Counted from the first letter of the stretch, positions 34,816 through 48,813 are shown. The stretch is DNA of 64,000 nt from a virus (IMGVR_UViG_3300049893_000724:120460-184459); one strand, 5' to 3'. Program-made: numbers and translations. Notes: generated by a model not told the origin, from the letters alone.

Positions 34816-34842
34816 GAATCGGCGGCAATTAACTGCCGATTC
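34816..34842. other. GC-rich hairpin in non-coding region
   Basis: GAATCGGCGG-CAATTAA-CTGCCGATTC (10-bp stem with one G.T pair); adjacent GCCGCGGC palindrome. Confidence 0.6.
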
Positions 34843-34854
34843 ACTATATCACCA

Positions 34855-34883
34855 AGTATAACACTGCTGCCCCACGATGTCAA
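34855..34883 (-). promoter_or_regulatory. Sigma70-type promoter
   Basis: TTGACA-17-TATACT on minus strand. Confidence 0.8.
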
Positions 34884-34909
34884 CCGCAGGGCACACAGTA
34901 AGCATCACA

Positions 34910-35080
34910 TTAGAACGCGATTTCCTCCAGAGTAGGAATACCAATCACCTGCTCAATCACGGGCGATTCGATATAATCAAAACCACCAACTTGATCACTG
35001 GCGATTGCATCCAGAATGGACATAATCTCGCTGCCAGTGTTACCTTGTGCCAGCAGAGAAAGCATCACGGACTTGGACAT
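34910..35080 (-). CDS. 56-aa hypothetical protein (not in ORF track)
   Basis: MSKSVMLSLLAQGNTGSEIMSILDAIASD...EEIAF. Confidence 0.65.
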   Translation of the reverse strand: MSKSVMLSLLAQGNTGSEIMSILDAIASDQVGGFDYIESPVIEQVIGIPTLEEIAF

Positions 35081-35159
35081 AATAACGAAGGAAAGTGTTA
35101 GAAACTGTGTGGTTGGTGAGTGTCTTTATAAGGGCGCATCTCATTCCCCTTTGTTGATA

Positions 35160-35321
35160 TCAGACTGCTACATCTTCAGGCAGCAGATTTACAATGGCAT
35201 CCACACCAGCGATATGCAGAGACTGTACAAATACCATCGCTTGATTGATAGTGGGGAACTCTACAGTACGCTCTACTTTGTCTTGAACGTTAGTGAAGGT
35301 GACAGTGCGAGCTTGTGTCAT
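35160..35321 (-). CDS. 53-aa hypothetical protein (not in ORF track)
   Basis: MTQARTVTFTNVQDKVERTVEFPTINQAMVFVQSLHIAGVDAIVNLLPEDVAV. Confidence 0.65.
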   Translation of the reverse strand: MTQARTVTFTNVQDKVERTVEFPTINQAMVFVQSLHIAGVDAIVNLLPEDVAV

Positions 35322-35357
35322 TTGAGTGTTAATGAAAGTGTGGTCAGTGAGTGTTAC

Positions 35358-35603
35358 TTAGAAGTCGAACACGTCGCTATCAATCTGGACAACATTTACA
35401 GCGGGGTCATTATAGCGAACCCCATCACCAGTTACTGCATCTGAACCAACGCAATCACAGAAGGTTTGATAATCACCACACTCTTGGGCGAGGTGATACA
35501 AACCCTCATCATTGTTGATCCAGAGAGCAACATTCCAGGTCTCATAATTCTCCCAACCGTTATACTCAGTATCGGTCAGATTTGCTTGGAAAGTGGTGCT
35601 CAC
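35358..35603 (-). CDS. Early hypothetical protein (NGW.NYETWNVALW motif)
   Basis: GTG start at 35603 downstream of repeat R1; the track start at 35657 runs through the repeat. Confidence 0.75.
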   Translation of the reverse strand: MSTTFQANLTDTEYNGWENYETWNVALWINNDEGLYHLAQECGDYQTFCDCVGSDAVTGDGVRYNDPAVNVVQIDSDVFDF

Positions 35604-35633
35604 TGTGTGTTGGTTCGTCCTTACACTATAGAG

Positions 35634-35652
35634 ACACTTTAAGTGGCTCAGT
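35634..35652 (-). repeat. Cassette repeat R1 (ACACTTTAAGTGGCTCAGT on +), probable early promoter element
   Basis: Exact 19-mer; contains CACTT-T-AAGTG palindrome. Confidence 0.9.
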
Positions 35653-35677
35653 AACACTCACTCAGCAACCCTGGGTG

Positions 35678-35851
35678 TTACCAACGATCAGGACAGCTGA
35701 GATCTTCGACATAAGCTTCGACACGCTCAGCTGGTTCCAATTTGAATAACTTCTCCCAGTCAATCTGATGTGGGTCGAAGTCAGGAAACGCGGAGATGTC
35801 CAGCGTGATTCTATAACGAACCTTCTGTGCTTGTTGATAGGCAACTGACAT
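35678..35851 (-). CDS. Hypothetical protein
   Basis: MSVAYQQAQKVRYRITLDI...; ATG chosen downstream of promoter 35880-35908. Confidence 0.7.
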   Translation of the reverse strand: MSVAYQQAQKVRYRITLDISAFPDFDPHQIDWEKLFKLEPAERVEAYVEDLSCPDRW

Positions 35852-35879
35852 AAGTGCGCTCCTTTGGTGTTCTTGAAAT

Positions 35880-35908
35880 AGTCTAAGATACCTGGGAATT
35901 ATTGTCAA
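35880..35908 (-). promoter_or_regulatory. Sigma70-type promoter
   Basis: TTGACA-17-TAGACT. Confidence 0.75.
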
Positions 35909-35980
35909 CGTCCTGGGGAGTATTTATCGGCATCGGTGGATTTATGCGGGGGATCTGTGGGGATTTTGTGACGTTGGGGG

Positions 35981-36010
35981 TTGACGGATTTATGGCGGTC
36001 GTGTTATAAT
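35981..36010 (+). promoter_or_regulatory. Plus-strand sigma70-type promoter firing into non-coding AT-rich tract
   Basis: TTGACG-18-TATAAT with TG upstream of the -10. Confidence 0.65.
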
Positions 36011-36202
36011 GCGTTCGCTAAGATCACAAGACTTCAGCACATTAAAAGCACACAAATACACCCACTAATTCTCAACAATACACCTAAATGATTCTCAATT
36101 ACTAACACTTATTGAGAATAAGATAAAACGTTCATTTATATTTTTAATTACATTTTTTAATTGATTTAATACGTTTTTAACCATAAATCAATCAAAAAGC
36201 AT

Positions 36203-36225
36203 AAAAAAAGGGGGTGTAATCCCCT
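36203..36225 (-). terminator. Intrinsic terminator
   Basis: AGGGG-ATTACAC-CCCCT followed by a T run, just after the stop at 36231. Confidence 0.7.
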
Positions 36226-36230
36226 CTGAG

Positions 36231-36368
36231 TTAGTATGTCATAATAGATGCAATCGTACCTGCTCGTATATAGAAATCAACCATTCTTTCTGCTTCATTG
36301 TAGGTATTAAACCCTTGAAACTTCCACCCTTGAGAATAAGGACAGAACCAGCGAATCGTTGTTCTCAT
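36231..36368 (-). CDS. 45-aa hypothetical protein (not in ORF track)
   Basis: MRTTIRWFCPYSQGWKFQGFNTYNEAERMVDFYIRAGTIASIMTY. Confidence 0.65.
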   Translation of the reverse strand: MRTTIRWFCPYSQGWKFQGFNTYNEAERMVDFYIRAGTIASIMTY

Positions 36369-36383
36369 TGTGTTAAACTCCTA

Positions 36384-36602
36384 TCAGTTAAGTACACTTT
36401 CCACCATATCATTCACATAGTCTTCATCATAAAAGAGTGAAATCTCTTCGATCAGTTCATCTGGAGTTGAGCAACTTTCACGCAGATTCAGTTCAAGTTG
36501 TTCGCTTGCAAATTGTACCAAACTGTCGAGATCCATACCATCAACAATCTGCTCAATGTAGTTAGCAAGCAGTTTATCGTATTGGTCTTGAGTAAGTTCC
36601 AT
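36384..36602 (-). CDS. Acidic early hypothetical protein
   Basis: ORF track. Confidence 0.75.
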   Translation of the reverse strand: MELTQDQYDKLLANYIEQIVDGMDLDSLVQFASEQLELNLRESCSTPDELIEEISLFYDEDYVNDMVESVLN

Positions 36603-36619
36603 TTTGTTTGTGTAATGTT

Positions 36620-36790
36620 TCAGGAATGAGAGTGAAGAATGTCTAGCATTTGTTGGTGAAACTTGTCTGCCTCACGAACCACATTTGCTGCCTCTGATAC
36701 ATCTTCAATCTCATACTTTGTCATCTCCAGAGAATGAATCACATTAGAGAGAAGGTCAGTCAGTGCCTCAACTTTTTGTGCGTCAGTCAT
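36620..36790 (-). CDS. 56-aa hypothetical protein (not in ORF track)
   Basis: MTDAQKVEALTDLLSNVIHSLEMTKYEIED... Confidence 0.65.
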   Translation of the reverse strand: MTDAQKVEALTDLLSNVIHSLEMTKYEIEDVSEAANVVREADKFHQQMLDILHSHS

Positions 36791-36807
36791 CATCAATCTC
36801 CTTATGT

Positions 36808-37122
36808 TCAGTTCAGACGCATACCAGAGAAGAAAGGAATTGGGGCACCTTGATAGTTAATGAACCACTGGCCTTTCTTCTGAAAGACATACTCATTGTC
36901 ACAGCCATGCACTTTCAAAATAGCATTGAGGCGGGACTTTGTGGTTGCTGATTGATAACCACCATCGAACAATTCAATCCAAGTTTCACCAATGCGGGCA
37001 ATCAGATTACCGTACAGAAACACATCAGAAACATTGGAAAAGTTGATGACTTCAGTATTATCTTTCTTCCAATCTTGTGATGCAGTGATGGCATCATTCA
37101 TTTGCTTTTCGATGACTCGCAT
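36808..37122 (-). CDS. Early hypothetical protein
   Basis: First gene after R2; DGGYQSATTKSRLNAIL. Confidence 0.8.
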   Translation of the reverse strand: MRVIEKQMNDAITASQDWKKDNTEVINFSNVSDVFLYGNLIARIGETWIELFDGGYQSATTKSRLNAILKVHGCDNEYVFQKKGQWFINYQGAPIPFFSGMRLN

Positions 37123-37152
37123 TGTGAGAAGTGTTGTGCTTATACTACTGGT

Positions 37153-37171
37153 ACACTTTAAGTGGCTCAGT
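37153..37171 (-). repeat. Cassette repeat R2
   Basis: Exact 19-mer plus adjacent AGTAAC-T-GTTACT palindrome. Confidence 0.9.
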
Positions 37172-37176
37172 AACTG

Positions 37177-37290
37177 TTACTCAGCAGGTGAGATAATGTC
37201 AGCAACTGTGCGTAAAGTGTTGGCAGTGAGCGATCTTGTAGAAGGTGAAAAGACAAGTGCCATAATGAAAATCAATGCAAGAACTTTCAT
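37177..37290 (-). CDS. 37-aa hydrophobic peptide (not in ORF track)
   Basis: MKVLALIFIMALVFSPSTRSLTANTLRTVADIISPAE; stop lies in the R2 flank palindrome. Confidence 0.55.
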   Translation of the reverse strand: MKVLALIFIMALVFSPSTRSLTANTLRTVADIISPAE

Positions 37291-37308
37291 CTTCTTTCTT
37301 TTCATTCT

Positions 37309-37470
37309 TCAGAAGTATTGGCGGCAGTATTGTGATTCATTCCACCCGTCACGTTCATAACGTCGGGCATCATAATCATCGGCATCCATTAGATCATCGT
37401 GTTCGCAATCCTCATAATAAGCATCAAACTTTGAGTAGGAATCACCATTGTAAAATGAAGTTGTAGTCAT
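37309..37470 (-). CDS. 53-aa acidic protein (not in ORF track)
   Basis: MTTTSFYNGDSYSKFDAYYEDCEHDDLMDADDYDARRY... Confidence 0.6.
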   Translation of the reverse strand: MTTTSFYNGDSYSKFDAYYEDCEHDDLMDADDYDARRYERDGWNESQYCRQYF

Positions 37471-37472
37471 AG

Positions 37473-37715
37473 TCAAAAAGTATTCAGAACGTGAACAAAA
37501 TCAAGAGAAAAAACACACCAACCAACATAATCTGTCACCTCTTCGACTAATGCTTGAGCGATGGTTTCATCGGTGTCAGTATCATCAACTTCCACCTCGA
37601 AAGTATTACCAATCACAGAATTGATGACTTCTTGTTGTTCATCAACAGTGAAATCTTCATCATCAAAATCAAACAAAACCTCTGTGACTTGCAGTGTTAA
37701 GGTTTTCATCAACAT
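37473..37715 (-). CDS. Acidic hypothetical protein
   Basis: ORF track. Confidence 0.75.
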   Translation of the reverse strand: MLMKTLTLQVTEVLFDFDDEDFTVDEQQEVINSVIGNTFEVEVDDTDTDETIAQALVEEVTDYVGWCVFSLDFVHVLNTF

Positions 37716-37987
37716 GCACCATAGAAAGGATTACCAAGTTGTGGAAGGTTTGTATTATCGGCAGTCACAAGATAATTGTGTGCTAGACGCTCACGAATTG
37801 CGATTGCTTTCTCTACACGATTCAGATACTTTTTCGACATCTGATCAATACCTTGCCAGGAAAGAACTTGCAAACACCACTCCTTTGAGATGTCACCGTA
37901 AGGTGTTTTGACGGGATAAAATGATACGACCATCGTACCATCTTTAGAGTGAAGTGTAGGAAACTCAGTCATCGTTGAAGTGCTCAT
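37709..37987 (-). CDS. Early hypothetical protein
   Basis: First gene after R3; true start may be the second Met (MTEF). Confidence 0.75.
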   Translation of the reverse strand: MSTSTMTEFPTLHSKDGTMVVSFYPVKTPYGDISKEWCLQVLSWQGIDQMSKKYLNRVEKAIAIRERLAHNYLVTADNTNLPQLGNPFYGAC

Positions 37988-37996
37988 ACTATAGGG

Positions 37997-38015
37997 ACAC
38001 TTTAAGTGGCTCAGT
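37997..38015 (-). repeat. Cassette repeat R3
   Basis: Exact 19-mer plus AGTAAC-A-GTTACT. Confidence 0.9.
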
Positions 38016-38024
38016 AACAGTTAC

Positions 38025-38204
38025 TCAAAGACCGTTGATGTACTCTCTGAGTTCAGCATCATACTCCTCTTGAGTGTTAAAAATACGACCGTGAATGTTG
38101 AGAGGAAACTTCTTCTCAACACCAGCAGCTGCAACCATTTGGCAGTCTGCTTCATCGTAACCCATTTCGATGAGGTTCTGAACGTAGGGATTGTAATGTG
38201 TCAT
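38025..38204 (-). CDS. 59-aa hypothetical protein, sole gene of cassette R4-R3 (not in ORF track)
   Basis: MTHYNPYVQNLIEMGYDEADCQMVAAAGVEKKFPLNIHGR... Confidence 0.75.
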   Translation of the reverse strand: MTHYNPYVQNLIEMGYDEADCQMVAAAGVEKKFPLNIHGRIFNTQEEYDAELREYINGL

Positions 38205-38213
38205 ACTACTGGT

Positions 38214-38232
38214 ACACTTTAAGTGGCTCAGT
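38214..38232 (-). repeat. Cassette repeat R4
   Basis: Exact 19-mer. Confidence 0.9.
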
Positions 38233-38375
38233 TACTTAAACGATACGTTGACACCTACAACTTTTGCTGTAGGATTGCGAGCGAGTGCAGTTTCCCGTGC
38301 ATCTTTTGCAGAGTTTGCTTGCACTTCCTCCTTGAAGACTTTGCCACCAACGTATAACTCAACAATGTATTTCAT
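38232..38375 (-). CDS. 47-aa hypothetical protein (not in ORF track)
   Basis: MKYIVELYVGGKVFKEEVQANSAKDARETALARNPTAKVVGVNVSFK; stop overlaps R4. Confidence 0.7.
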   Translation of the reverse strand: MKYIVELYVGGKVFKEEVQANSAKDARETALARNPTAKVVGVNVSFK

Positions 38376-38572
38376 AGTGTTTGGAATGGTTGGACTTCTT
38401 TGATGTCAGAATTGAAAAACTTTTGAATGATGCTATCAATCACAGGATACCATTGTTCGTTATCACTCGGATAGCCACATTCTCGTGCTTGATTGAGAAA
38501 CTTCAAGATGCAAGTTTCCTCATTTGCAGTGAACTTAACGCGATTGAAAGTGTAACCAGTGTGTTCAGTCAT
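38372..38572 (-). CDS. Hypothetical protein
   Basis: ORF track; ATGA overlaps. Confidence 0.75.
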   Translation of the reverse strand: MTEHTGYTFNRVKFTANEETCILKFLNQARECGYPSDNEQWYPVIDSIIQKFFNSDIKEVQPFQTL

Positions 38573-38835
38573 TTGTTGTTAAGATTGCGGGAATTGATTT
38601 CTTCTTCGATGAGATCAAACACTTGCGTGTAGATGTAATCATAGTCTTCGACTTCGTTGAGAATATCGAACGCAACTTCACGATCTACAGGTACTTGATC
38701 GCCACCATCTTCGCTCCATACGAATACATCTTCATTGGTGAAGATAAATGCAGCAGCGGGTGCATCTTCTCCCTGTTGTTCGATCAGTCGATTAACACGA
38801 TCACGAAGATGTGCTAGGGTATTGTTGTTTGCCAT
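38569..38835 (-). CDS. Acidic hypothetical protein
   Basis: ORF track; ATGA overlap. Confidence 0.75.
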   Translation of the reverse strand: MANNNTLAHLRDRVNRLIEQQGEDAPAAAFIFTNEDVFVWSEDGGDQVPVDREVAFDILNEVEDYDYIYTQVFDLIEEEINSRNLNNK

Positions 38836-38969
38836 CAGATAAACTCTTCGAGGTAGTAATCAAGAGGAAGTCCAAGCTCTGCTGCTTGTTGTTCCCATTC
38901 GGTCCATTCTTCGGGAGAAGCATCATTGAAGAAGTCTTCCCGAGTATAATCAAAAACAGGTCCGCACAT
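38835..38969 (-). CDS. 44-aa acidic protein ending AAELGLPLDYYLEEFI (not in ORF track)
   Basis: Manual translation; resembles 47350..47487. Confidence 0.7.
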   Translation of the reverse strand: MCGPVFDYTREDFFNDASPEEWTEWEQQAAELGLPLDYYLEEFI

Positions 38970-39121
38970 AATCACTTTTTGTTGCGAGGGTTAATGTCAA
39001 TCAGTCGGTCAAGTGCATCACCAAGAGTAGAGCGAACTTGCTCATCTTTCAGTGATACAAACTCATACGCTTCGTAGAGTTTGATGTAAAGATCATCCCA
39101 TTGAGTTTGTGTCATTATCAA

Positions 39122-39370
39122 TCAGGCAGGAAGAATACAAAAGGTGCCACAGAAACGACGAACCCATTGTAGAGTTTCGTGGTAAGATGTGCGGGGGTTG
39201 CTCATCTCCATCGTAGAACCATTCTGAGGATTGTGTGCAACAGCAACATAAAGATTGTCGCACTCTTTATCAGTAATCTGCTCAATCCACATTTGATTGA
39301 CTTTACCTTCCTTCCAATTTGTGTGGTAGGAGTAGACTTCGGAGACGATCATCGGTTGAGTTGCGTTCAT
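39122..39370 (-). CDS. Early hypothetical protein
   Basis: First gene after R5. Confidence 0.75.
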   Translation of the reverse strand: MNATQPMIVSEVYSYHTNWKEGKVNQMWIEQITDKECDNLYVAVAHNPQNGSTMEMSNPRTSYHETLQWVRRFCGTFCILPA

Positions 39371-39379
39371 ACTACTGGT

Positions 39380-39398
39380 ACACTTTAAGTGGCTCAGT
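39380..39398 (-). repeat. Cassette repeat R5
   Basis: Exact 19-mer plus GTAAC-T-GTTAC. Confidence 0.9.
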
Positions 39399-39403
39399 AA
39401 CTG

Positions 39404-39718
39404 TTACCCATTTCTTCCATACCAAGCAAGAAACCCAATAATTGCAGCAACTGGTATAACAATCCACCAGTATTCTACAATCAACCAAATACCAAACACA
39501 ATTGCCGCTAACCATACATAACCCTCAACATCTCCATCAGATGAAGAAGAAGAACTGTTGGACTTTACTTCTCTCAAATTGACGATTTGTTGAACATCTC
39601 CGTGCTTGGCATAGATTTGTTCTTTCGCACCAGAGAATGTTGCAGCTTCAACCTCTGTGTTAATCCTACCGACGCGGGAGTTGACGAATACTTCTGCTCT
39701 CCAAGTTGCCATTACCAA
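39404..39718 (-). CDS. Membrane-anchored hypothetical protein
   Basis: C-terminal hydrophobic helices after a Ser-rich linker. Confidence 0.75.
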   Translation of the reverse strand: MVMATWRAEVFVNSRVGRINTEVEAATFSGAKEQIYAKHGDVQQIVNLREVKSNSSSSSSDGDVEGYVWLAAIVFGIWLIVEYWWIVIPVAAIIGFLAWYGRNG

Positions 39719-39966
39719 GTTCCTCTCTGAATGTGGATTTTGCGGACTTCCTGATACAGAAAATGCCGAAGTTTAGGGTCGGTAGTGTTATCAAAAGCAT
39801 AATACAATCGGTTCAGGTATTCATCTTGTGTCGAACCTATGTTACCATCACCACCAAGGTCATTGAGTGAAGAACCTGCTTTAGCTTTGGCACGTCCAAA
39901 GTTACCAGTGATGTTACCTTGTGTTCTTAGTTTCGGACGGATCTTTGAGAGATTAGAGTAAGTCAT
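39712..39966 (-). CDS. Hypothetical protein
   Basis: ORF track. Confidence 0.75.
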   Translation of the reverse strand: MTYSNLSKIRPKLRTQGNITGNFGRAKAKAGSSLNDLGGDGNIGSTQDEYLNRLYYAFDNTTDPKLRHFLYQEVRKIHIQRGTW

Positions 39967-40223
39967 CGTGCTACAATGTCCAGAGTTTCCATCAACATCA
40001 TCGCAAGTTCAGTCCGATTGTCTTCATCAACCACAGGAATGTTAGTTTCTACAAACTCACTCACAATTTCTTGCAGAAGGTCAGTCATTCGCTGGTCAGC
40101 ATACACATAACCTGCCAATTCATTCTTGAAACCGTCACGCAACAATCGCAGAGATTTTGTTACAGTGCGTTCTTGAGTAGTGTCAGTCATTTGAGGAAAG
40201 ATTTGTGTTTGGAGATACATCAA
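39963..40223 (-). CDS. Hypothetical protein
   Basis: ORF track; start probably MTDTT. Confidence 0.7.
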   Translation of the reverse strand: MMYLQTQIFPQMTDTTQERTVTKSLRLLRDGFKNELAGYVYADQRMTDLLQEIVSEFVETNIPVVDEDNRTELAMMLMETLDIVAR

Positions 40224-40678
40224 CGAGCGTACAAATAACCACCCGACCAGTCTGCATTTTCCAGCAGGTATTCACGATCAGCAATCAATCGCAGATCATA
40301 GCGTACACCTTGAGCAGGAGCTTTCCAAGAAGCAGACTTATACACTTCACCAGTCTTTTTATCAACGAAGCAGTGAGCAGAGCGACCACCGCCACCATCA
40401 ATAAAGATGACTTTGTGATACTTTTTGCCAGACTCGATGACATAATCAATGTCACACTTGCCAGACTTCAGTTCATCAATCTTGCGCTGATGATACTGTG
40501 ACTGAACCGAATCAGTGTTGTCGTAAGTATAATTGAAGTTCTCAATCGCTCGCTGATGTCCGCGAATCGAATACTGACGATAATTGTCTTTCAGTGCTTC
40601 AATCAGCAGATAGGTATTCTTGAGGACCGAATCTGCAATGATTTGTTGTGCTTGTGCTTGCATAGTAGTGGTGCTCAT
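40220..40678 (-). CDS. Early hypothetical protein (HCFVDKKTGEVYKSASWKAPA motif)
   Basis: First gene after R6; phage-type conserved motif. Confidence 0.8.
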   Translation of the reverse strand: MSTTTMQAQAQQIIADSVLKNTYLLIEALKDNYRQYSIRGHQRAIENFNYTYDNTDSVQSQYHQRKIDELKSGKCDIDYVIESGKKYHKVIFIDGGGGRSAHCFVDKKTGEVYKSASWKAPAQGVRYDLRLIADREYLLENADWSGGYLYAR

Positions 40679-40687
40679 ACTATAGGG

Positions 40688-40706
40688 ACACTTTAAGTGG
40701 CTCAGT
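40688..40706 (-). repeat. Cassette repeat R6
   Basis: Exact 19-mer. Confidence 0.9.
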
Positions 40707-40711
40707 TACAT

Positions 40712-41623
40712 TCACCAATTCTTTGCTAGGTTAAAATTTGCGCGACTGAATTGATAGCGGTCAACAATCTTGAAAGTGCCATAATTATTGACCATAACAT
40801 AACCTTCGTGATCACTTTGTTGACCATCAATCTCACAAAGGATTTCATCGTCACGCTCAATGAACCAGAACAAATCCATCTTGATTGAATACACCAACTT
40901 CCAAAGCCGAATCAGGTTGACATCACATTCACATTCTGATGCAATGTCATACTCAGCGACCTCATCAATTTGTTCACCCTCGCGGATGTAGCGATTGATA
41001 ACTTTTTTGAGTTCTTTCGCTTGCTTTTCATTCACGAAGTCGCAAAGAGTGCTCATTTGTTTAGCAAACTTGCACACATCTTCAATATCTTCACGATAAG
41101 GAGAGATCTCTGCTTCGGGACGCACAAACTTGCAGTATTTTGTGCTAATCAGATCACCTTCCAATGGATGAGCTTCCATCTCAGGAAGATAGTCTCCAGT
41201 GTAGTAAGTGTGAGGAGCAATGATAATCTCCTCACGCACAATCTCAGGAAACTTGTAAGTAATGGTATTGGGTCGGAATGTATCCAACCCTTTACCAAAA
41301 CCAATCCAATCACCTTGAAACACACCCTCAGTTTTAGGCAGAAACTCAAGGCAATAGATGAGGATTTGAGTTACACGCGGTTGACCACCAAAGTGCTCAA
41401 AAATGTCATCTTCATTATAGCAAAGACGAATCTTTTGCTTGTTAAATGCTGCCTTGGTGCATACAAAAAACTCACCATTTTGAGGATTAGTTCCCCACAC
41501 AATCGCAGGAGCACCATCAATCTTTACACTGATGTTGCTGTCGGTTTCATACATCCAATCCAGCACAGATAGATCCCCAGTGAGGATACAATCTTCGGGA
41601 TGTTCCAGGTGTTTGTTCTGCAT
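40712..41623 (-). CDS. Ligase-superfamily nucleotidyltransferase (DUF6267 / RNA-ligase-like)
   Basis: KHLEHPED start; motif I VKIDG, III FQGD, IV HEGYV, V FKIVDR. Confidence 0.6.
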   Translation of the reverse strand: MQNKHLEHPEDCILTGDLSVLDWMYETDSNISVKIDGAPAIVWGTNPQNGEFFVCTKAAFNKQKIRLCYNEDDIFEHFGGQPRVTQILIYCLEFLPKTEGVFQGDWIGFGKGLDTFRPNTITYKFPEIVREEIIIAPHTYYTGDYLPEMEAHPLEGDLISTKYCKFVRPEAEISPYREDIEDVCKFAKQMSTLCDFVNEKQAKELKKVINRYIREGEQIDEVAEYDIASECECDVNLIRLWKLVYSIKMDLFWFIERDDEILCEIDGQQSDHEGYVMVNNYGTFKIVDRYQFSRANFNLAKNW

Positions 41624-41632
41624 ACTATAGGG

Positions 41633-41651
41633 ACACTTTAAGTGGCTCAGT
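41633..41651 (-). repeat. Cassette repeat R7
   Basis: Exact 19-mer; supplies the TGA stop of the methyltransferase. Confidence 0.9.
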
Positions 41652-42210
41652 TTTCATCAAGAGGCAGTTTTGCAGCAGAGTTACTCTTTGGTATGATAAG
41701 TTCTTCCATAATGATTTGCTTTGGTAGAAAGTTCCAGCAATAGTAACTAGAACTGAACGTAATCTTGTCGTTTGGTCTACCATCAGGACTATGAAACTTC
41801 ATCCGTTTATCAAACATTAGTAGTTGCAGATCCTTATCCTTAAACAACTGTTTGGGAGCACTATCATTCAACCAGGTGTTAGTCATAATGAGGGCAAATG
41901 GTTTCCCAAAAGATAATGCTCGCTCAAAGAACTTACGTTTGTTGGTGAATGGTGGATTGGATACGATTACATCCCACTCAAAGTCAGGAACATAAGTGAG
42001 AAAATCTTGTCCCGTTGAAATGTGTGTGGAGATGACTAGATTTTGTGCTCCAATCTGCTTGACAAACTCACTCTCTTTGGTATCAAATGGACACCAGACC
42101 TTTGCATCTTTGGGAATGTATTTGAGAATGGGAGTTACACCGTATGCAGGAGTATAGCACTCGTCATTGTTACCCTGCGAGTACATTAGTTTGCCACTAT
42201 CAAGAGTCAT
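41647..42210 (-). CDS. Amino (N6A/N4C) DNA methyltransferase
   Basis: DECYTP, VWCPFD (degenerate motif I), GQDF, DVIVSNPPF (motif IV). Confidence 0.75.
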   Translation of the reverse strand: MTLDSGKLMYSQGNNDECYTPAYGVTPILKYIPKDAKVWCPFDTKESEFVKQIGAQNLVISTHISTGQDFLTYVPDFEWDVIVSNPPFTNKRKFFERALSFGKPFALIMTNTWLNDSAPKQLFKDKDLQLLMFDKRMKFHSPDGRPNDKITFSSSYYCWNFLPKQIIMEELIIPKSNSAAKLPLDEN

Positions 42211-42704
42211 ACAATACGAGTCCCAAATTGTTGGATTTCTTTCTTAGTCAGACTACCAGAGAGACGGGGATCTTTGTGCTTGCCGTGAATCTTACGCTCC
42301 CAATCTTTCTTGAGTTTAGGAAGAAGAATCATCAGCACATCATCACCAGTCAGTTTCCACACTTCCACAACTTTGCCACCTTCATAACGTGCAATGTAGT
42401 GGTTGGAGTATTTACCAAGCTTTTCTTCAATCAGATAACGCTCCTGCTCTTCCCAAGTATCTTGAACACTGATACCATTATACGTCCCATTGATAGAATT
42501 AGCAATGGTAGACTTATACTCACATTCACCCGATTCATCTACAGCATCAGCACCAGAATAGGTTTCTGCTACTTTATGCCCAAGAATACCAGCAAGATGT
42601 ATCTCACGAGAGCGAGCATAACTGAAAGGATCTCCCCAACCTTGTTCATCACAAAGTTGATACATTTCCTCAAACAGTTGTTGAAACCTTTGTTCTGGTG
42701 TCAC
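42207..42704 (-). CDS. PvuII-like PD-(D/E)xK restriction endonuclease
   Basis: GADAVDESGECEYKS vs recalled PvuII GNDAVDNAGQEYELKS; similarity continues to the C-terminus (DWERK..GKHKD...FGTRIV); ATGA overlap with the MTase. Confidence 0.7.
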   Translation of the reverse strand: MTPEQRFQQLFEEMYQLCDEQGWGDPFSYARSREIHLAGILGHKVAETYSGADAVDESGECEYKSTIANSINGTYNGISVQDTWEEQERYLIEEKLGKYSNHYIARYEGGKVVEVWKLTGDDVLMILLPKLKKDWERKIHGKHKDPRLSGSLTKKEIQQFGTRIV

Positions 42705-42728
42705 GGGTGTTCATTATCTACTAAAGGG

Positions 42729-42747
42729 ACACTTTAAGTGGCTCAGT
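42729..42747 (-). repeat. Cassette repeat R8
   Basis: Exact 19-mer; supplies the TGA stop of 42743..42931. Confidence 0.9.
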
Positions 42748-42931
42748 TTTCATCAACTGGCAGTTGTGCTACACTTTTGCCTTTCTTGTGGTCGTTGATG
42801 TACTTTCGTGCAGATGCTTCAGTTCTACACAGTTTCTCAAGTTGTTGACCGTTGTGGATAATGATGTATCCTTTGTTGCCATAAGGAACTGCTGCATAGA
42901 AATCCTTATACATTGTGAACCCTTCTTTCAT
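42743..42931 (-). CDS. Hypothetical protein
   Basis: ORF track; ATGA overlap. Confidence 0.75.
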   Translation of the reverse strand: MKEGFTMYKDFYAAVPYGNKGYIIIHNGQQLEKLCRTEASARKYINDHKKGKSVAQLPVDEN

Positions 42932-43458
42932 ACTAGAAACCTCTTTTCATACTCTAGAAGATCGGAAGGTGCTGGGATAATGTTGTCATCGTATTCTACA
43001 GCAGTTTTCCAGCTTGCGCCAGTCTTGCGATACAATTTGATGCCAAGATGCTGATACTTGAGATTAGTAGGGACGTGAACTTTATAGTCCACACCATCAT
43101 TCTCCGTCAGCATACTCAACCGCTTGTTCTCATCCTTGGTGACCGTAATCGTGGAACAAGATAACCAGAACAGGTTCTCAAATATGTCATAATCAGACAA
43201 ATACTTGTATGGGTTGTCCATAATCATCCGACCAATGAATTGTGGCGACAAACAGTGATCATGAGTACGCTCTTTTGGATTATCCTTTGCTGCCTCACTT
43301 ATCAAACCAAGATGATTGACCTGAGCACAATCAAACACACCAATGTAGTAAATGCGTGTGATGGGTCGGAAGAAATCAGGTTCGCCCCAGTTGTCTATAT
43401 TTGCCTGCAGAGAGTTAAATGTAGTTTGGCAGTAGGCTTTCCAGTTCTTGGAGTTCAT
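42928..43458 (-). CDS. Hypothetical protein, possible His-Me finger nuclease
   Basis: THDHCLSP...TITVTKDEN pattern. Confidence 0.5.
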   Translation of the reverse strand: MNSKNWKAYCQTTFNSLQANIDNWGEPDFFRPITRIYYIGVFDCAQVNHLGLISEAAKDNPKERTHDHCLSPQFIGRMIMDNPYKYLSDYDIFENLFWLSCSTITVTKDENKRLSMLTENDGVDYKVHVPTNLKYQHLGIKLYRKTGASWKTAVEYDDNIIPAPSDLLEYEKRFLV

Positions 43459-43560
43459 TTTAATAAAAAGCGGTGATCTGGTTGCGGTGGATGGGTTCTA
43501 GGTCGCTTGCAGTAGAATTGCAGAAAAATCAGGTTTTTGGCCTAGTGGCCATCAGGGTTC

Positions 43561-44742
43561 TCACCGCTTGATGACCGACACGGCAGGTTGACCCTGATTG
43601 AAGATAGTATCAACAACTGCCTGCACTTTGCGTGAGGTGCTGATGCCAACCTTGTCATATACAGGCACACAAACCAGACCAAACTTCTTGGTTTCGTCAC
43701 CCAAACGGATCACACGTCCGATAGTCTGAGAGATGCCAATGTAATCCATATTCCGCATAAACAACACCGCTTCCAATCCAGACACATTAATGCCCTCAGA
43801 TAGGATGCTGTGGTGAATGACAACAAATCGCTTGCTGCTATCCTTACCCCAAGCATTGAGGGTATCAAAGAATACCTCACGGTCAACTTTCTTGCCGTCA
43901 ATGACAGCACCAGTCTTGGCAGTAATATACATCCAAGAGTAACCACGTTGCTCTAGTTGAGCACAGAAGTCTGATTGAGAAACAAGACCCACAATCTGTT
44001 TGGTAGAGCGAGCACAAATCAGAATCTTGCTGAGGTTCTGGTCATCAATCGTCTCCATCAGATTGTCAGCGTCACGCTCAAAGATCATCTGCCGATCTTG
44101 AACCATAGGCAGTTGCTTCACGACAACTTTAGGAGGCAAAATGTATCCACCATCAACCAACTCAGGAGCAGGAACTTGGCAGATTACCTGACCATAAACC
44201 TCAGGGAGGTTCATCCCAGGTTTAGAAATAGTGGTAGAATGTTTGGGAGTTGCAGTGAAGAAGTAGCAACGGTTAGCATTAGCACTGAAGTGCTCAGTTG
44301 CAGGGAAAAAGTGACGCTGAACGCTGTTATGTGCCTCATCAAAGTAGATCGTATCCACATCAATCTCAGCATCAACCAGACGCTGCAAAGAGTTGTACGT
44401 GGTGAAGATCAACTGATGACGATTAGCAGCGGCACACATACCTGCGTGAACAACAATGTCGGCAGGTTTGGTAGTGCTAACGTGATGAGTTTCGCCACTG
44501 TGAACGTGCAGAACTTCAGCGTTGGTGATGTGCTCCAGAAACTCAGAAGAGAGTTGCTCAGCAAGCAGAATACGGGGAGCAACAACTACAACAGTCTGCG
44601 GAGTTTCAGACTGAAACTGACGCATTGTATCATAGATCATCTTCAGCGTTTTACCGCCACCAGTAGGAACAATCACTTGGCCCTTGCTGTGCTTCTGCAT
44701 CGCAGCAATAGCACGGGATTGATGAGGACGAAGAGTAATCAT
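43561..44742 (-). CDS. Superfamily 2 helicase/ATPase (ResIII-like DEAD/DEAH box)
   Basis: VPTGGGKT, YFDEAH, FFTAT, ILSEGINV, SQTIGRVIR. Confidence 0.9.
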   Translation of the reverse strand: MITLRPHQSRAIAAMQKHSKGQVIVPTGGGKTLKMIYDTMRQFQSETPQTVVVVAPRILLAEQLSSEFLEHITNAEVLHVHSGETHHVSTTKPADIVVHAGMCAAANRHQLIFTTYNSLQRLVDAEIDVDTIYFDEAHNSVQRHFFPATEHFSANANRCYFFTATPKHSTTISKPGMNLPEVYGQVICQVPAPELVDGGYILPPKVVVKQLPMVQDRQMIFERDADNLMETIDDQNLSKILICARSTKQIVGLVSQSDFCAQLEQRGYSWMYITAKTGAVIDGKKVDREVFFDTLNAWGKDSSKRFVVIHHSILSEGINVSGLEAVLFMRNMDYIGISQTIGRVIRLGDETKKFGLVCVPVYDKVGISTSRKVQAVVDTIFNQGQPAVSVIKR

Positions 44743-44783
44743 TACAAATTACAGTGTTTCAGGTGGTTTGGTATCTAAAAGAC

Positions 44784-44819
44784 ATTATAGCACCCTTCTA
44801 GGCGATTGTGAAGGGTGCT
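44784..44819 (-). promoter_or_regulatory. Sigma70-type promoter with embedded stem-loop
   Basis: TTCACA-17-TATAAT; AGCACCCTTC/GAAGGGTGCT 10-bp stem. Confidence 0.7.
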
Positions 44820-44840
44820 GATGATGTATCTGTAACTAGA

Positions 44841-44859
44841 ACACTTTGAGTGGCTCAGT
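44841..44859 (-). repeat. Cassette repeat R9 (one mismatch, ACACTTTGAGTGGCTCAGT)
   Basis: 18/19 identity; lacks the TAGTAT extension. Confidence 0.8.
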
Positions 44860-45464
44860 TAATCTTTGCCGCCTTCGTCACCTGTTCCAGTGTACTTGTG
44901 CTTTAATTGACTTTCTTTCTTCTTACCAGTTGCTTTCAACACAATGTCGCGTAGAGTTCTTCTACCTGCTCTCTTGAGTTGTCTCTTTTCTGCTCTGGTG
45001 TATTCACCTTTTACAGTTTTAACTTGCTTTTGGCGTTGTGGTGCTTCTTTCTTTTTCTTAAGAAGTTGTGATGCCGCTGATGTTAATTCTTTTTCTTTAG
45101 GTTTAGCAGCAGTTGCAGATGCGCCTGTTTTCTTTGCAGCAGCTCTTGCTCTTGCTGCTGCTACTCTTTCTGCTTTTGCTGCTGCTAATTGTTTCTCTCT
45201 TGCAGACCCACGCTCTTGTTCTGGTTGCTGAACTCTTGTTTCTGCTTTACGCTGAGTTCCAATATCTTTGCGTGGTTTGTATTCTTTGGCAGGAACAGTT
45301 TGTCCCCCACCTACTCTCTTTGTCCTGCGTCTTTCAGGAGCAGTTTTCTTACGCTCAGCTCCAACTCTTCCACCATCACCAACGCGACGGATTTGAGATG
45401 AACCCATAACACTAGCGTCATAGGCTGCTTCAGCAATCAAAACAAACTCCTGAAAGGTTTTCAT
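44859..45464 (-). CDS. Lys/Arg/Ala-rich protein with capsid-targeting-like N-terminus
   Basis: MKTFQEFVLIAEA...; late promoter CTAAATA at 45488-45494. Confidence 0.75.
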   Translation of the reverse strand: MKTFQEFVLIAEAAYDASVMGSSQIRRVGDGGRVGAERKKTAPERRRTKRVGGGQTVPAKEYKPRKDIGTQRKAETRVQQPEQERGSAREKQLAAAKAERVAAARARAAAKKTGASATAAKPKEKELTSAASQLLKKKKEAPQRQKQVKTVKGEYTRAEKRQLKRAGRRTLRDIVLKATGKKKESQLKHKYTGTGDEGGKD

Positions 45465-45487
45465 CAGTATCTAAACACTCTTTTTAG

Positions 45488-45494
45488 TATTTAG
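45488..45494 (-). promoter_or_regulatory. Late promoter (CTAAATA)
   Basis: Variant of the late consensus about 24 nt upstream of ATG 45464. Confidence 0.55.
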
Positions 45495-45691
45495 AACTCC
45501 TCCTCCTTTGCTTTATACGAACCCTTGAACACACGTCCCTCAGCATACAGTTGGCGGACACGTTCGCGGCGAGTAGCAATCAACAAATCGTATTGAGATT
45601 GTTGTTCCTTCGTGAACACAAAGTCTTGTTTCCGCCACGCATCTTTCAGTTCATTGATGTGAGGCAGCACATTAGCAATAGTTTCAGTCAT
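45491..45691 (-). CDS. Hypothetical protein
   Basis: Start taken at MTETIANVLP rather than the track start. Confidence 0.7.
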   Translation of the reverse strand: MTETIANVLPHINELKDAWRKQDFVFTKEQQSQYDLLIATRRERVRQLYAEGRVFKGSYKAKEEEF

Positions 45692-45695
45692 TGAA

Positions 45696-45884
45696 TCAAA
45701 AATCAAAGTTGGAGTTAAGGAAAGCGTTGAAAGATTTGTCGTTATCCTCTTCCTCAAAGAGGGGTTCATTCATTTCCTCAACAAAGTCAAAGGAAGAAAA
45801 CTCTTCAATTTGCAGATCGTCGAAGCAGTCCATAATTTGTTTGTTGCTTACACTATTGAAACACTTTAAGTGGCTCAGTTTCAA
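45696..45884 (-). CDS. Acidic hypothetical protein (true start downstream of R10)
   Basis: Track ORF runs through R10; likely start MDCFDD. Confidence 0.6.
   Translation of the reverse strand: MKLSHLKCFNSVSNKQIMDCFDDLQIEEFSSFDFVEEMNEPLFEEEDNDKSFNAFLNSNFDF
45861..45879 (-). repeat. Cassette repeat R10
   Basis: Exact 19-mer. Confidence 0.9.
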
Positions 45885-46076
45885 TCAACGGGACAGAATT
45901 GCTTTCATATTAGCACGCTTCGCTGCCTGTTGTGCTCTTGCTTCAGCACCTAACTCCTGGTGAACGTGCTTAATATGTGCAGTCTTTTGTGTTGCTTGGC
46001 GCTTAGCAACTTGTTGACTGTAGTAGTTTGGCTCCATATGTGGAGATTGTTCCATAAATTGCTGAAACGTCTTCAT
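45885..46076 (-). CDS. 63-aa basic protein with capsid-targeting-like N-terminus
   Basis: MKTFQQFMEQS...; late promoter ATAAATA at 46096-46102. Confidence 0.75.
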   Translation of the reverse strand: MKTFQQFMEQSPHMEPNYYSQQVAKRQATQKTAHIKHVHQELGAEARAQQAAKRANMKAILSR

Positions 46077-46306
46077 TTTACCAACACTTTTTCATTATTT
46101 ATTGTTGGGACATCATTCCAATGTCTTATGACCCCCGCACAAATGAAAAGATTAGTAATGAGATAAGTGAGAAATATAAAGATCCGTATATAAGCAATGT
46201 TGTCTGCTTCTCTGTCATTTTTACCTGCTTTTTCTCCTAATGCTTTAGCAACTAATCGGAACGCAGTTTCCTTCTTCTTCGTACACCGATTCTCTGGTTT
46301 TGACAT
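46073..46306 (-). CDS. Small membrane protein
   Basis: RLVAKALGEK...IAYIRIFIFLTYLITNLFICAGVIRHW. Confidence 0.7.
   Translation of the reverse strand: MSKPENRCTKKKETAFRLVAKALGEKAGKNDREADNIAYIRIFIFLTYLITNLFICAGVIRHWNDVPTINNEKVLVK
46096..46102 (-). promoter_or_regulatory. Late promoter (ATAAATA)
   Basis: 20 nt upstream of ATG 46076. Confidence 0.6.
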
Positions 46307-46514
46307 ACTCTAACTCACACCACTGTTCTGAATAACAAACCACAAGCAATCGGTCATTCCGATGTATTGAACACGCTTTATAGTTAGTCTTATCTTTAGG
46401 ACGCACCAATTCTTCAATTGTAATATACTCTTTATCTTTGAAATAAACCCAACCCTCAACACCTTTTCCGTTATTCCACTTCACATAGTCATTGACTTTG
46501 GGTTCGTAGGTCAT
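46245..46514 (-). CDS. Hypothetical protein
   Basis: ORF track; ATGA overlap. Confidence 0.75.
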   Translation of the reverse strand: MTYEPKVNDYVKWNNGKGVEGWVYFKDKEYITIEELVRPKDKTNYKACSIHRNDRLLVVCYSEQWCELEYVKTRESVYEEEGNCVPISC

Positions 46515-46810
46515 ACAAATGCACTTTCCAGGGGTGTTTGTTTGATAGGCATTGCTGTGTAGTTTCGAGTATTCTTAAACTCCACAACTTTACCAACTTC
46601 CTTACTATTTACAGGACTATAGAACTCACACTTTTTGTAGGAATAGAATCCCCAGATGGTGCGGGTCGGTTTTCCCAAATTGTAATCAAACCTGCGGTCA
46701 CAACGCAACCAAATAGAAAACACATTACGTTTGAACTCTTCAACTTCATAGGAATAACCTTTGGGTGGTTTATGCGTAAACTGAGGAATTAAATCAACAG
46801 AGAGTTTCAT
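46511..46810 (-). CDS. Hypothetical protein
   Basis: MKLSVDLIPQF...IWGFY...TAM. Confidence 0.75.
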   Translation of the reverse strand: MKLSVDLIPQFTHKPPKGYSYEVEEFKRNVFSIWLRCDRRFDYNLGKPTRTIWGFYSYKKCEFYSPVNSKEVGKVVEFKNTRNYTAMPIKQTPLESAFV

Positions 46811-46977
46811 CAACAATCGTAGAACTTTTCTTGAGTGAGAAGTTTAATCATTTCCTGAAGTTGCAGGATTTCCTGTTGCTGTTCTGTAATCTTTTGTTGT
46901 AGTTCTGTAATGCGTCCTTGATACTGTTCTTTTAATTCACCAACCATATGGTTGGTGTGAGATACATTTTGTGTCAC
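46810..46977 (-). CDS. 55-aa Gln/Glu coiled-coil protein (not in ORF track)
   Basis: GTG start overlapping the upstream stop; heptad pattern. Confidence 0.65.
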   Translation of the reverse strand: MTQNVSHTNHMVGELKEQYQGRITELQQKITEQQQEILQLQEMIKLLTQEKFYDC

Positions 46978-47216
46978 GTCGTAAAACTCTCAACAACTTC
47001 AGAATCTACATTTTCAGCAAGAGCAAATGTCACAGCATTAAGAATGTTTTCCTTCAAATCACTGTAGTATTTCTCATAGAAATTACCATCATCTTCAGCA
47101 GAAATCAAATCAAAACATTCATCATCATCCTCTGCAATGACATTCCAAACTCCACCATATTCTGATGCAGGAAAAGGAACATAGTGTTGAACGATGTAAA
47201 GAAACTTTTGTGCCAT
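46974..47216 (-). CDS. Acidic hypothetical protein
   Basis: Downstream of promoter 47240-47268. Confidence 0.8.
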   Translation of the reverse strand: MAQKFLYIVQHYVPFPASEYGGVWNVIAEDDDECFDLISAEDDGNFYEKYYSDLKENILNAVTFALAENVDSEVVESFTT

Positions 47217-47239
47217 TGTTGTTTGTAGATTACCTCTTA

Positions 47240-47268
47240 ATTGTAGTAGTTTTTGTCGCCTTCGTCAA
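47240..47268 (-). promoter_or_regulatory. Sigma70-type promoter
   Basis: TTGACG-17-TACAAT, GAGG SD downstream. Confidence 0.8.
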
Positions 47269-47349
47269 GGTTGTTTCGGTCAGCCGCAAATATAAATGCT
47301 GCACCGATTGTGAGTAGAGAACCAAGACCCATTCCAAGTAGAAAAGTCA

Positions 47350-47487
47350 TCAATAAAACTCCGCAAGATAATAATCAACAGGAACTTCTAAACGTGCTGC
47401 TTCACGCTCAACTTCTTTCCAAAACTCTTCTGCTGCTTTATTCATCTCTGCTTTTTTGATGAGGTCTTGGATGCGTTTTGGAATCAT
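47350..47487 (-). CDS. 45-aa protein ending EAARLEVPVDYYLAEFY (not in ORF track)
   Basis: Manual translation; resembles 38835..38969. Confidence 0.7.
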   Translation of the reverse strand: MIPKRIQDLIKKAEMNKAAEEFWKEVEREAARLEVPVDYYLAEFY

Positions 47488-47818
47488 TTTCGTCTAGGTA
47501 ATCGAAGTGTTTAGAGAATAGAACTGTAAAAAACCAAGCAAATGCTGCTGAGATGATGAGAAAGTAAATCACCTTTGATTTACTATCGCCTGCTGACGAT
47601 AGTACGCTTTATAGAGTTTTTCATCACGTTGGATTAGAAATACATTCCATCCAATCATTGCAATGAAACCAAGAGCGAAAGTGATGACATACTTACGGTT
47701 CATTTTTCAGTCTCAACAGTTGTCTTCAGAAGTTCATAATCTTGTTTTTTGTTGTAGATATTCATAACAAGATCCACAACACAATAACCAAAGGCAAATC
47801 CTGCCATAATTGAAGTAA

Positions 47819-48226
47819 TCATACTGCTAGTGCTCCGTTAGGGATTTCAACGATTTCGGGGAGTTTCTCCTCAAAGGTATTCATATCATAGCACACCCAT
47901 TCACCACTGCGGAAGACATAGGCATACTCTTCACCTTCACGAAGATACTCACAGAGGTCAGCATCAAGGCGAGGAGGGCAATCATCACCGCGATAAGAAT
48001 AATAGTTAGGACCATAAACACCTTTCTTACCACTATCATCCCAACGCTCATCAGTCCAGGCACAGGACACATCACCACCATCAATCAGTTCTTCAGCAAG
48101 AGATTTGGTGTTGTAGTGAGTAGTCAGAATACGACCCAACCATTCGGGATAACCATCCCAGTGGTGATACACGGAAAGAATAGAACCGTCTTTGAGTTCA
48201 AGACCAATTCGTGAGCGAGTTGCCAT
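47819..48226 (-). CDS. Early phage protein (YHHWDGYP motif)
   Basis: MATRSRIG...SVYHHWDGYPEWLG...EEYAYVF; first gene after R11. Confidence 0.8.
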   Translation of the reverse strand: MATRSRIGLELKDGSILSVYHHWDGYPEWLGRILTTHYNTKSLAEELIDGGDVSCAWTDERWDDSGKKGVYGPNYYSYRGDDCPPRLDADLCEYLREGEEYAYVFRSGEWVCYDMNTFEEKLPEIVEIPNGALAV

Positions 48227-48252
48227 CAGAGAGTTGTGCTTATACTACAGGG

Positions 48253-48271
48253 ACACTTTAAGTGGCTCAGT
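48253..48271 (-). repeat. Cassette repeat R11
   Basis: Exact 19-mer. Confidence 0.9.
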
Positions 48272-48767: not shown

Positions 48768-48813
48768 ATTATATATGAAAAAAGGGCACTTGTCCAGTGC
48801 CCTTGTGACAGTT
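48768..48813 (-). promoter_or_regulatory. Stem-loop promoter/terminator element
   Basis: AACTGTCAC + AAGGGCACT/AGTGCCCTT stem + T run; TGGACA-17-TATAAT. Confidence 0.7.

Follow-up and report, generated by a model that had tools for sequence, protein, structure and literature searches.

What does a virus gain by repeating the same short sequence, always in one direction, in front of one small operon after another: does the sequence start transcription, does it serve recombination, or does it do both? The question is posed by a 64,000-nucleotide stretch of viral DNA, hereafter the window, which corresponds to bases 120460-184459 of a 184,459-bp IMG/VR virus record (IMGVR_UViG_3300049893_000724) estimated to be 88% complete. 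The 19-mer ACACTTTAAGTGGCTCAGT occurs there in 11 copies, all on the + strand, ten of them exact and the one at 44841 with a single mismatch. An earlier note on this DNA had given the same 11 positions in a single orientation, both borne out exactly here, and had likened the array to an integron without an integrase, each repeat being a regulated early promoter as well as a recombination hotspot. Comparison with related viruses leads us to a modified reading, which we regard as probable: the repeat would be the core of a lineage-specific pre-late promoter module that doubles as a homologous-recombination seam.

The repeated module and its carriers

The source of the window is an uncultured freshwater T4-like virus of cyanobacteria; its DNA and protein matches are all to T4-like cyanomyoviruses (Kyanoviridae), and the public runs containing the stretch come from metagenomes of freshwater, estuary, reservoir and sediment. 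The nearest isolate is the marine Synechococcus phage SynMITS9220M01 (MT408532), with a protein identity of about 60%. T4-like cyanophages are among the most abundant aquatic viruses, and their accessory genes are mostly without known function. The array is followed on the - strand by very large open reading frames (ORFs) of 641, 3996, 516 and 2484 aa that correspond to the g25-g6-g7-g8 baseplate block of SynMITS9220M01 and P-HM2; the small accessory genes among which the array sits thus form a block ahead of the baseplate module. The G+C content is 38-44% in the accessory array (window 34000-46000) and 32-35% in the adjoining baseplate genes (8000-32000).

All 11 copies lie within 12.6 kb, 217-2392 nt from one to the next, against a chance expectation of 0.01 matches even at ≤3 mismatches. 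A scan of the full 184,459-bp record at that threshold brought up no further copy, and the earlier remark that the 19-mer was not seen outside 35.6-48.3 kb therefore stands. The genes of the array region are on the - strand; on this coding strand the core reads ACTGAGCCACTTAAAGTGT and is followed by five bases and TAGTAT or a near variant, so that the form previously proposed, ACTGAGCCACTTAAAGTGT-N5-TAGTAT, was correctly read. The copies, numbered R1 to R11 by their position in the window, are always intergenic and run in the same direction as the genes, with start codons 0-30 nt beyond them, and every module heads an operon of 1-10 genes. The ORF upstream ends between 9 nt before the core and 5 nt inside it at R2-R11, in agreement with the earlier observation that the last gene of each upstream cassette ends in or near the repeat, and 25 nt before the core at R1.

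An exact search of IMG/VR with the core returned 17 further loci, mostly arrays, that add 63 non-redundant copies and bring the total to 74 with those of the window; copies were gathered at ≤3 mismatches, and the near-invariance of the core is in part a matter of ascertainment. The related contigs carry arrays of 5-16 copies, one contig of 112 kb having at least 16. The module measures about 45 nt and is made up of a TRA triplet 6 nt upstream, the core, five variable bases and TAGT(A/G)T, with the start codon following. Real variation of the core is restricted to position 9 (A in 59 copies, C in 15) and position 16 (G in 66) among the 74. The fifth base after the core is a purine in 70/74 copies; the TAGT that comes next is 89-99% conserved and the two bases behind it are looser. 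The upstream triplet, which has its T in 64/74 copies, is the stop actually used in 20 of 68, and the TGA within the core is the stop of the upstream gene in another 14 of the 68; with the TAG of TAGTAT included, no reading frame stays open across the module. The start codon that follows lies most commonly 25-29 nt past the core (21 copies) or coincides with the ATG in TAGTATG (17 copies, by a first-ATG rule), while a Shine-Dalgarno-like word is present in only 7/68 copies.

The module belongs to one lineage of T4-like cyanophages. Its sister in SynMITS9220M01 is the motif TTACTCACCTCTAAAGTGTCCCTATAGTAT, which occurs about 12 times in the syntenic region, ahead of the baseplate genes. The two share region, orientation and the downstream half TAAAGTGTyCCTATAGTAT, and differ in the upstream half, which is ACTCACCTC in the isolate and ACTGAGCCACT here. 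A motif common to the whole family was considered and rejected, AAAGTGT-N5-TAGTRT reaching only background level in Syn9, S-CRM01, S-PM2 and S-SRM01. A host origin of the repeat was likewise rejected: the exact 19-mer is found only 3 times in 596 Gb of prokaryote genomes, where about 4 matches are expected by chance. Two of the three lie in one Polynucleobacter stretch and are without the TAGTAT part; the third, in a 2.3-kb contig of an actinomycete bin (L036, CAZZLH010000063.1), has the full module including TAGTGTAAGCAAC, so that this contig is probably a misbinned piece of a cyanophage. The host GntR element CGRE1 (PMC6191309) has the form GTTG-N13/14-CAAC, which is incompatible with the module, and Rfam gave no match across window positions 33-52 kb.

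Cassette exchange at the repeats

The comparison of relatives shows that the repeats coincide with sites at which these viruses differ by whole operons. For this comparison the ORFs of the window region and of the 17 further loci were clustered into families (fam), and each locus was written as a string of families and modules. Gene order is reshuffled between the strings: fam7 is found in three contexts, each time directly after a module; the fam9-fam6 pair and fam19 always stand directly before a module, beyond which their partners vary; and fam4 and fam5 switch operons among relatives. Within arrays, the right neighbour varies for 19/28 families at module junctions compared with 12/32 elsewhere (Fisher p=0.02), and for all genes the figures are 20/28 and 18/53 (p=0.002). 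In the window array, 17 of the 54 distinct internal homology ends fall within -25 to +45 nt of a module start, where 6% would be expected by length (p=7e-9); modules make up 28% of the gene borders and hold 45% of the border-located homology ends (p=0.017). The gain and loss of cassettes at the repeats, proposed in the earlier note, and their replacement as well are thus visible among relatives, whose gene order breaks there more often than at other borders, though not exclusively.

One slot, between fam12 at the end of the helicase operon and the DUF6267 gene (fam0), is filled in four different ways, each time with a DNA methyltransferase included, or is left vacant. The slot has no filling in the related contigs L009 and L014, where a single module forms the joint, and is occupied in the window by a nuclease-like gene and a methyltransferase gene, in L010 (2700-4230) by a gene of unknown function and an N6/N4 methyltransferase gene, and in L011 (2838-5790) and L025 (1516-4301) by two unknown genes, a Dam-type (D12) methyltransferase gene and a gene for a CAAD-domain protein. 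The cassette of the window is private to its lineage and is bounded by the two copies of a 51-nt direct repeat (Table 1); the repeat takes in 22 nt of sequence ahead of the core, so that the methyltransferase gene ends in seven codons copied from the fam12 tail. L014 contains a second cassette flanked by direct repeats, in this case a 59-nt pair. Conversely, in an independent viral metagenome contig fam6 is joined to fam13 through one module and exactly the R3-R4 cassette (fam66) is gone (joint 38017 to 38232); the same fam6-fam13 adjacency is found in L016 and L020.

Two products encoded in this slot deserve a remark of their own. The 165-aa protein of the window cassette has a weak PvuII-family match (phrog_35715), an identity that was not retained, the Pfam match (E=1e-3) missing the cut-off and no PDB sequence matching; it is a possible nuclease only. 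The CAAD-domain protein, of 97 aa, has a module-bounded cassette to itself (L011:2478-2771, - strand; L025:1156-1449). The CAAD domain anchors aminoacyl-tRNA synthetases of cyanobacteria in the membrane, which makes the 97-aa gene look host-derived.

Identical sequence of at least 35 nt recurs in direct orientation at intervals of 0.2-2.4 kb, and the record encodes a RecA/UvsX-type recombinase. Phage homologous recombination of the UvsX type would use the repeats as seams through which units are inserted, deleted, replaced and moved, and there is good comparative evidence that the modules double as such seams. A simpler account is that the repeats are promoters only, an acquired gene surviving when it arrives with a promoter or behind one, and that the repeat plays no mechanistic role in recombination; we consider this unlikely, if worth serious weight. 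Several observations that favour it count at the same time against the proposed seams. Many indels are found at repeat-free gene borders (single-gene indels at 36613-36807, 39966-40226, 42931-43579 and 47694-47819), several families change neighbours inside operons, and breakpoints show only a modest enrichment at modules, of about 1.6-fold in the DNA comparison and about 3.5-fold in odds in the comparison of genes, the gene families compared being non-independent. Breakpoints at operon starts could moreover arise because selection keeps transcription units intact, and not from recombination in the repeat. Since the module abuts the upstream stop, repeat and operon border are indistinguishable except where flanks have been duplicated. 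There, the 51- and 59-nt repeats reach 22 nt into the coding sequence upstream and enclose two inserted cassettes, and the corresponding empty sites of relatives have a single copy, together the trace that homologous recombination through the repeat should leave. This argues against promoters alone, as do the single-gene units fam7 and fam66, which recur at different modules.

Site-specific recombination would provide another route to the same pattern, with the repeats as the recombination sites of an integron-like cassette system, and direct repeats do bound gene units of variable content in the array. An integron has an adjacent tyrosine-recombinase integrase, attC sites that are imperfect inverted repeats folding as single strands, and promoterless cassettes served by one common promoter. 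The tyrosine and serine recombinase profiles (PF00589, PF00239) had zero matches in the 184-kb record, at its completeness of 88%, although control genomes did respond; with no integrase or resolvase present, the array is not an integron. Its palindrome spans only 11 nt, is not maintained and has no attC-like fold, and each unit is preceded by its own promoter-like module. The flanks duplicated around cassettes differ in length, as homologous exchange would give, and the many single-gene indels at repeat-free borders likewise fit the analogy poorly. We judge such a system extremely improbable, and the comparison with integrons is abandoned.

A probable promoter and the place of its -10

The favoured reading, in which promoter and seam are one element, supposes that each module is the promoter of a short pre-late accessory operon transcribed by the host RNA polymerase. 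The placement of the copies, their co-orientation with the genes and their position at operon heads are in keeping with the promoter function proposed earlier; the hexamers then put forward are doubtful. The module holds two -10-like hexamers, TAAAGT and TAGTAT, and a CTGAGC 17 nt before the latter. The pairing of CTGAGC as -35 with TAGTAT as -10 has the textbook spacing of 17 nt, but TAGTAT is a doubtful -10 because the conserved start codons of two gene families lie within TAGTATG. In DUF6267, headed by R7, the conserved N-terminus M-x-N-x-H-L-E-H-P starts at this ATG, a placement shared by the window, four related contigs and SynMITS9220M01 (the Pfam profile begins at residue 3). In fam66, headed by R4, the differences between the window and SynMITS9220M01 before the second ATG are at synonymous sites in the frame of the TAGTATG ATG; the fam66 homologue of the isolate, like its DUF6267, starts at that codon. 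Transcripts beginning downstream of TAGTAT would lack these codons, which argues for a start further upstream. The earlier suggestion that the real start may lie beyond the ATG adjoining TAGTAT holds in part: it agrees with R3 (fam13) and R6 (fam4), where the conserved N-terminus of relatives is at the second ATG, but not with R7 and R4.

The alternative is that TAAAGT, inside the core, acts as the -10 and that transcription starts at the conserved purine 5 nt after the core; judging from the sequences, we lean towards this upstream start. The T, the A and the final T of TAAAGT are invariant or almost so in the 74 copies. The usual distance from the -10 to the ATG would then be 27-31 nt, to be compared with 26-33 nt in P-HM2, whereas TAGTAT gives 13-18 nt, and the leaders of DUF6267 and fam66 would be about 5 nt long. 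In P-SSM5, a TATAAT stands just 6 nt before the ATG of the DUF6267 homologue (L031:5930-6012), a layout expected to give a leaderless mRNA.

Certain features sit badly with the promoter half of the reading. A scan for the sigma-70 consensus found that 0/11 copies reach 4 of 6 positions in both hexamers; TAAAGT has no conserved -35 upstream, and TAGTAT contains real start codons, so that either choice of -10 leaves a misfit. The spacing from box to -10 is unlike the roughly 30 nt of P-HM2-type promoters, and the contigs assembled from metatranscriptome X17 break at the repeats and are uninformative on starts. An extra factor, or a feature besides the sigma-70 consensus, may take part.

The module could instead be a punctuation mark in RNA, a processing or ribosome-loading site in long early transcripts that start at canonical hairpin promoters, and not a promoter at all. 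Two such promoters are present in the region (48768-48804 and 44784-44818), the copies themselves fail the sigma-70 scan, and an RNA role would accommodate the three-frame stops across the module, the rarity of Shine-Dalgarno words and the DUF6267 and fam66 start codons within a TAGTATG conserved in two distant phages. On the other side, the RNA is no more structured than shuffled sequences, Rfam is blank, and the related elements of P-HM2, S-CAM7 and P-SSM5 have a clear TATAAT-type -10 at a fixed distance from the box. To our knowledge, no sequence-specific RNA-binding factor would explain an invariant word of 19 nt. We regard this account as improbable.

The palindrome CACTT-A-AAGTG within the core could be taken for an operator or a hairpin. 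Every exact copy in the window has it intact, and inverted GTG/CAC words are also found in the boxes of other cyanophages, as would suit a cruciform, or an operator bound by a dimeric repressor or activator, that made these promoters a regulated class, in line with the regulated promoter of the earlier note. Over the 74 copies, however, it is perfect in 49 and has one arm broken in 25, with 0 compensating changes, and the SynMITS9220M01 version of the motif has no palindrome. As a hairpin it would amount to 4 bp and a 3-nt loop only, and the core folded with 70 nt of upstream sequence does no better than shuffles (z -1.5 to +1.4). As the palindrome is not maintained and gives no folding signal, it is not read as an operator or stem-loop, and a function of this kind appears highly improbable.

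When would such promoters be active? Genes 056-074 of P-HM2, just upstream of g25, are classed 'Early (A)' (Thompson et al. 2016, S2 table, PMC5082946), and this block has the same place as the array, upstream of g25-g6-g7. The first gene after R11, fam7, is 42% identical (E=8e-33) to PHM2_061, which is itself in the 'Early (A)' class (PMC5082946). The term early, used in the earlier note, thus has synteny and a single orthologue (fam7/PHM2_061) as its basis; DUF6267 has only a distant paralogue in P-HM2 (PHM2_162, classed late) and the helicase match is weak, both being uninformative on timing.

P-HM2 also offers a box with which the core can be compared. Its genes 057, 061, 064 and 068 are preceded by GTGGCACA and, about 30 nt further on, by a TATAAT-like hexamer, an arrangement shared by P-SSM5 and S-RIM8; GTGGCACA-N28-31-TAnnnT occurs 1-4 times per genome in Syn9, S-PM2, S-CRM01, S-SRM01 and P-HM2, and zero times in the reversed control. 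In S-CAM7 the form is ACTGACCACTGAA, about 24 nt and then TATACT. The opposite strand of the core reads GTGGCTCA, a 7/8 match to the P-HM2 box. Both elements are near-palindromic boxes upstream of a -10-like hexamer, in the same block upstream of the baseplate genes and before the same kind of small genes. They differ in that the box of the module is 14 nt from TAGTAT or abuts TAAAGT, the fixed distance of 28-31 nt not being kept, and in that the module has no intervening hairpin. The genome of the window has one copy of the long form, its sole one, 21,950 bases before the window (G000:C1:98509, - strand), in which ACTGACCACT, a GC-rich terminator hairpin with a T-run and TATAAT fit the S-CAM7 type.

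A promoter of the T7/T3 type was also tried, on account of the words CCCTATAG and CACTTAAAG, which resemble T7 and T3 promoter cores. The single-subunit RNA polymerase of the T7 group reads a promoter of about 23 nt that ends in TATAG. No T7-like RNA polymerase (PF00940) was found in the record, a weak negative as control genomes gave none either, and the idea was rejected.

A more specific picture of the module can be drawn from these elements, tentatively and with some doubt, as a plug-and-play junction. It would combine stops in three frames with a compact promoter that has TAAAGT as its -10 and starts about 5 nt before TAGT-ATG, giving near-leaderless DUF6267 and fam66 mRNAs; any operon placed behind it would be expressed at once, modules would be swapped by homologous recombination, and the box would be a shortened, inverted GTGGCACA signal read by the same factor.

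Known systems and neighbouring features

The closest parallel in behaviour, also invoked in the earlier note, is the promoter-early stem-loop (PeSL) element, described in the T4-type phages RB49/phi1, T4/PST and KVP40/nt-1, whose rearrangements have likewise been ascribed to homologous recombination from one copy to another (Arbiol et al. 2010, PMC2839356; Comeau et al. 2014, PMC4122927). The array is like the PeSLs in that numerous almost identical modules, here probable promoters, stand in direct orientation among the small accessory genes of a hyperplastic part of a T4-like genome, and in that insertions, deletions and replacements among relatives cluster at the elements, although here they are enriched and not confined to them. 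By comparison with PeSLs, the module has no stem-loop, as both the site scan and the folds against shuffles indicate, and no terminator-like site adjoins any of the 11 copies; its hexamers are not those of the sigma-70 consensus, its conserved part being a 19-nt box in the -35/spacer region; Shine-Dalgarno words are mostly missing (present in 7/68); and the host is a cyanobacterium. The behaviour is shared, but the stem-loop is missing and hexamers and Shine-Dalgarno are uncertain, so that the module is better called PeSL-like than a PeSL. In the cyanophage S-PM2, PeSLs were judged too sparse to explain gene acquisition (Puxty et al. 2015, PMC4503421). The literature search, whose coverage did not extend to Weigele 2007 and Doron 2016, found no account of such arrays in cyanophages. 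Repeated intergenic sequences that act as promoters are also described in the halovirus HF2 (PMC8707807), an analogy only: that virus is archaeal, its promoter is of another type and its repeats are reported to have been tested with reporters.

Should one signal indeed both switch genes on and mark the points of exchange, it would furnish a simple rule by which expression units could be recognized in uncultured phages, as well as a mechanism for the movement of defence-related cargo between phages, here alternative nuclease and DNA-methylase modules in one slot. It would also represent a compact natural promoter worth a trial in picocyanobacteria, and would carry the PeSL concept over to cyanophages from the phages of enterobacteria and vibrios. 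If the junction pictured above is right, the lineage could swap nuclease/methyltransferase modules and other accessory genes and have them expressed at once. The overlap of start codons with the presumed -10 poses, in addition, the concrete question of where transcripts begin.

Table 1. Modules, flanking repeats and promoter-like hairpins of the array region (window coordinates)
Feature	Position	Strand	Remarks
R11 core	48253..48271	-	Heads a 10-ORF operon starting with fam7 (phrog_1987, T4-GC66)
R11 full module		-	Extends about 8 nt further upstream and 20 nt further downstream than the core
R10 core	45861..45879	-	Heads a 2-gene operon (fam8, fam3)
R9 degenerate core	44841..44859	-	One mismatch; TAGTTA instead of TAGTAT; heads the helicase operon
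R8 core	42729..42747	-	Left border of the nuclease/methyltransferase cassette; the fam12 stop is the TGA inside the core
R7 core	41633..41651	-	Heads DUF6267 (fam0); conserved start is the ATG of TAGTATG
R6 core	40688..40706	-	Heads a 4-gene operon starting with DUF7717 (fam4)
R5 core	39380..39398	-	Heads a 6-ORF operon with fam9-fam6 at its end
R4 core	38214..38232	-	Heads the single-gene cassette fam66; start codon within TAGTATG
R3 core	37997..38015	-	Heads a 4-gene operon starting with fam13
R2 core	37153..37171	-	Heads a 5-ORF operon starting with fam14; identical to R5 over 32 nt
R1 core (last)	35634..35652	-	Heads ORFs continuing towards the baseplate module
Left copy of 51-nt direct repeat	42719..42769	-	22 nt of the fam12 3' end, core and 10 nt
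Lineage-private cassette	41647..42704	-	165-aa protein and 187-aa DNA methyltransferase (phrog_799)
Right copy of 51-nt direct repeat	41623..41673	-	92% identical to the left copy
Hairpin promoter after R9	44784..44818	-	Sigma-70-like; 8-bp arms GCACCCTT/AAGGGTGC enclose TTCACA, then TG-n-TATAAT; putative promoter of the SF2 helicase gene, which follows
Terminator-like hairpin	48768..48804	-	Encloses TGGACA, with TATAAT 17 nt beyond it; immediately upstream of the array

The two hairpin promoters of the region match the consensus at 11/12 positions and have their -35 within a GC-rich hairpin. The one upstream of the array is followed by a T-run and therefore looks like a composite terminator/promoter, and the one that comes after the degenerate R9 has its counterpart in SynMITS9220M01, where the same arrangement precedes the helicase gene. 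Inside the last operon there is a gap of about 380 nt without a confident ORF (35852-36230, - strand), which opens with a strong terminator-like hairpin (36207-36227); sigma-70-like sites lie in this region at 35908-35880 and 35837-35808, and a small RNA, or another start for the gene that follows, may lie in the gap.

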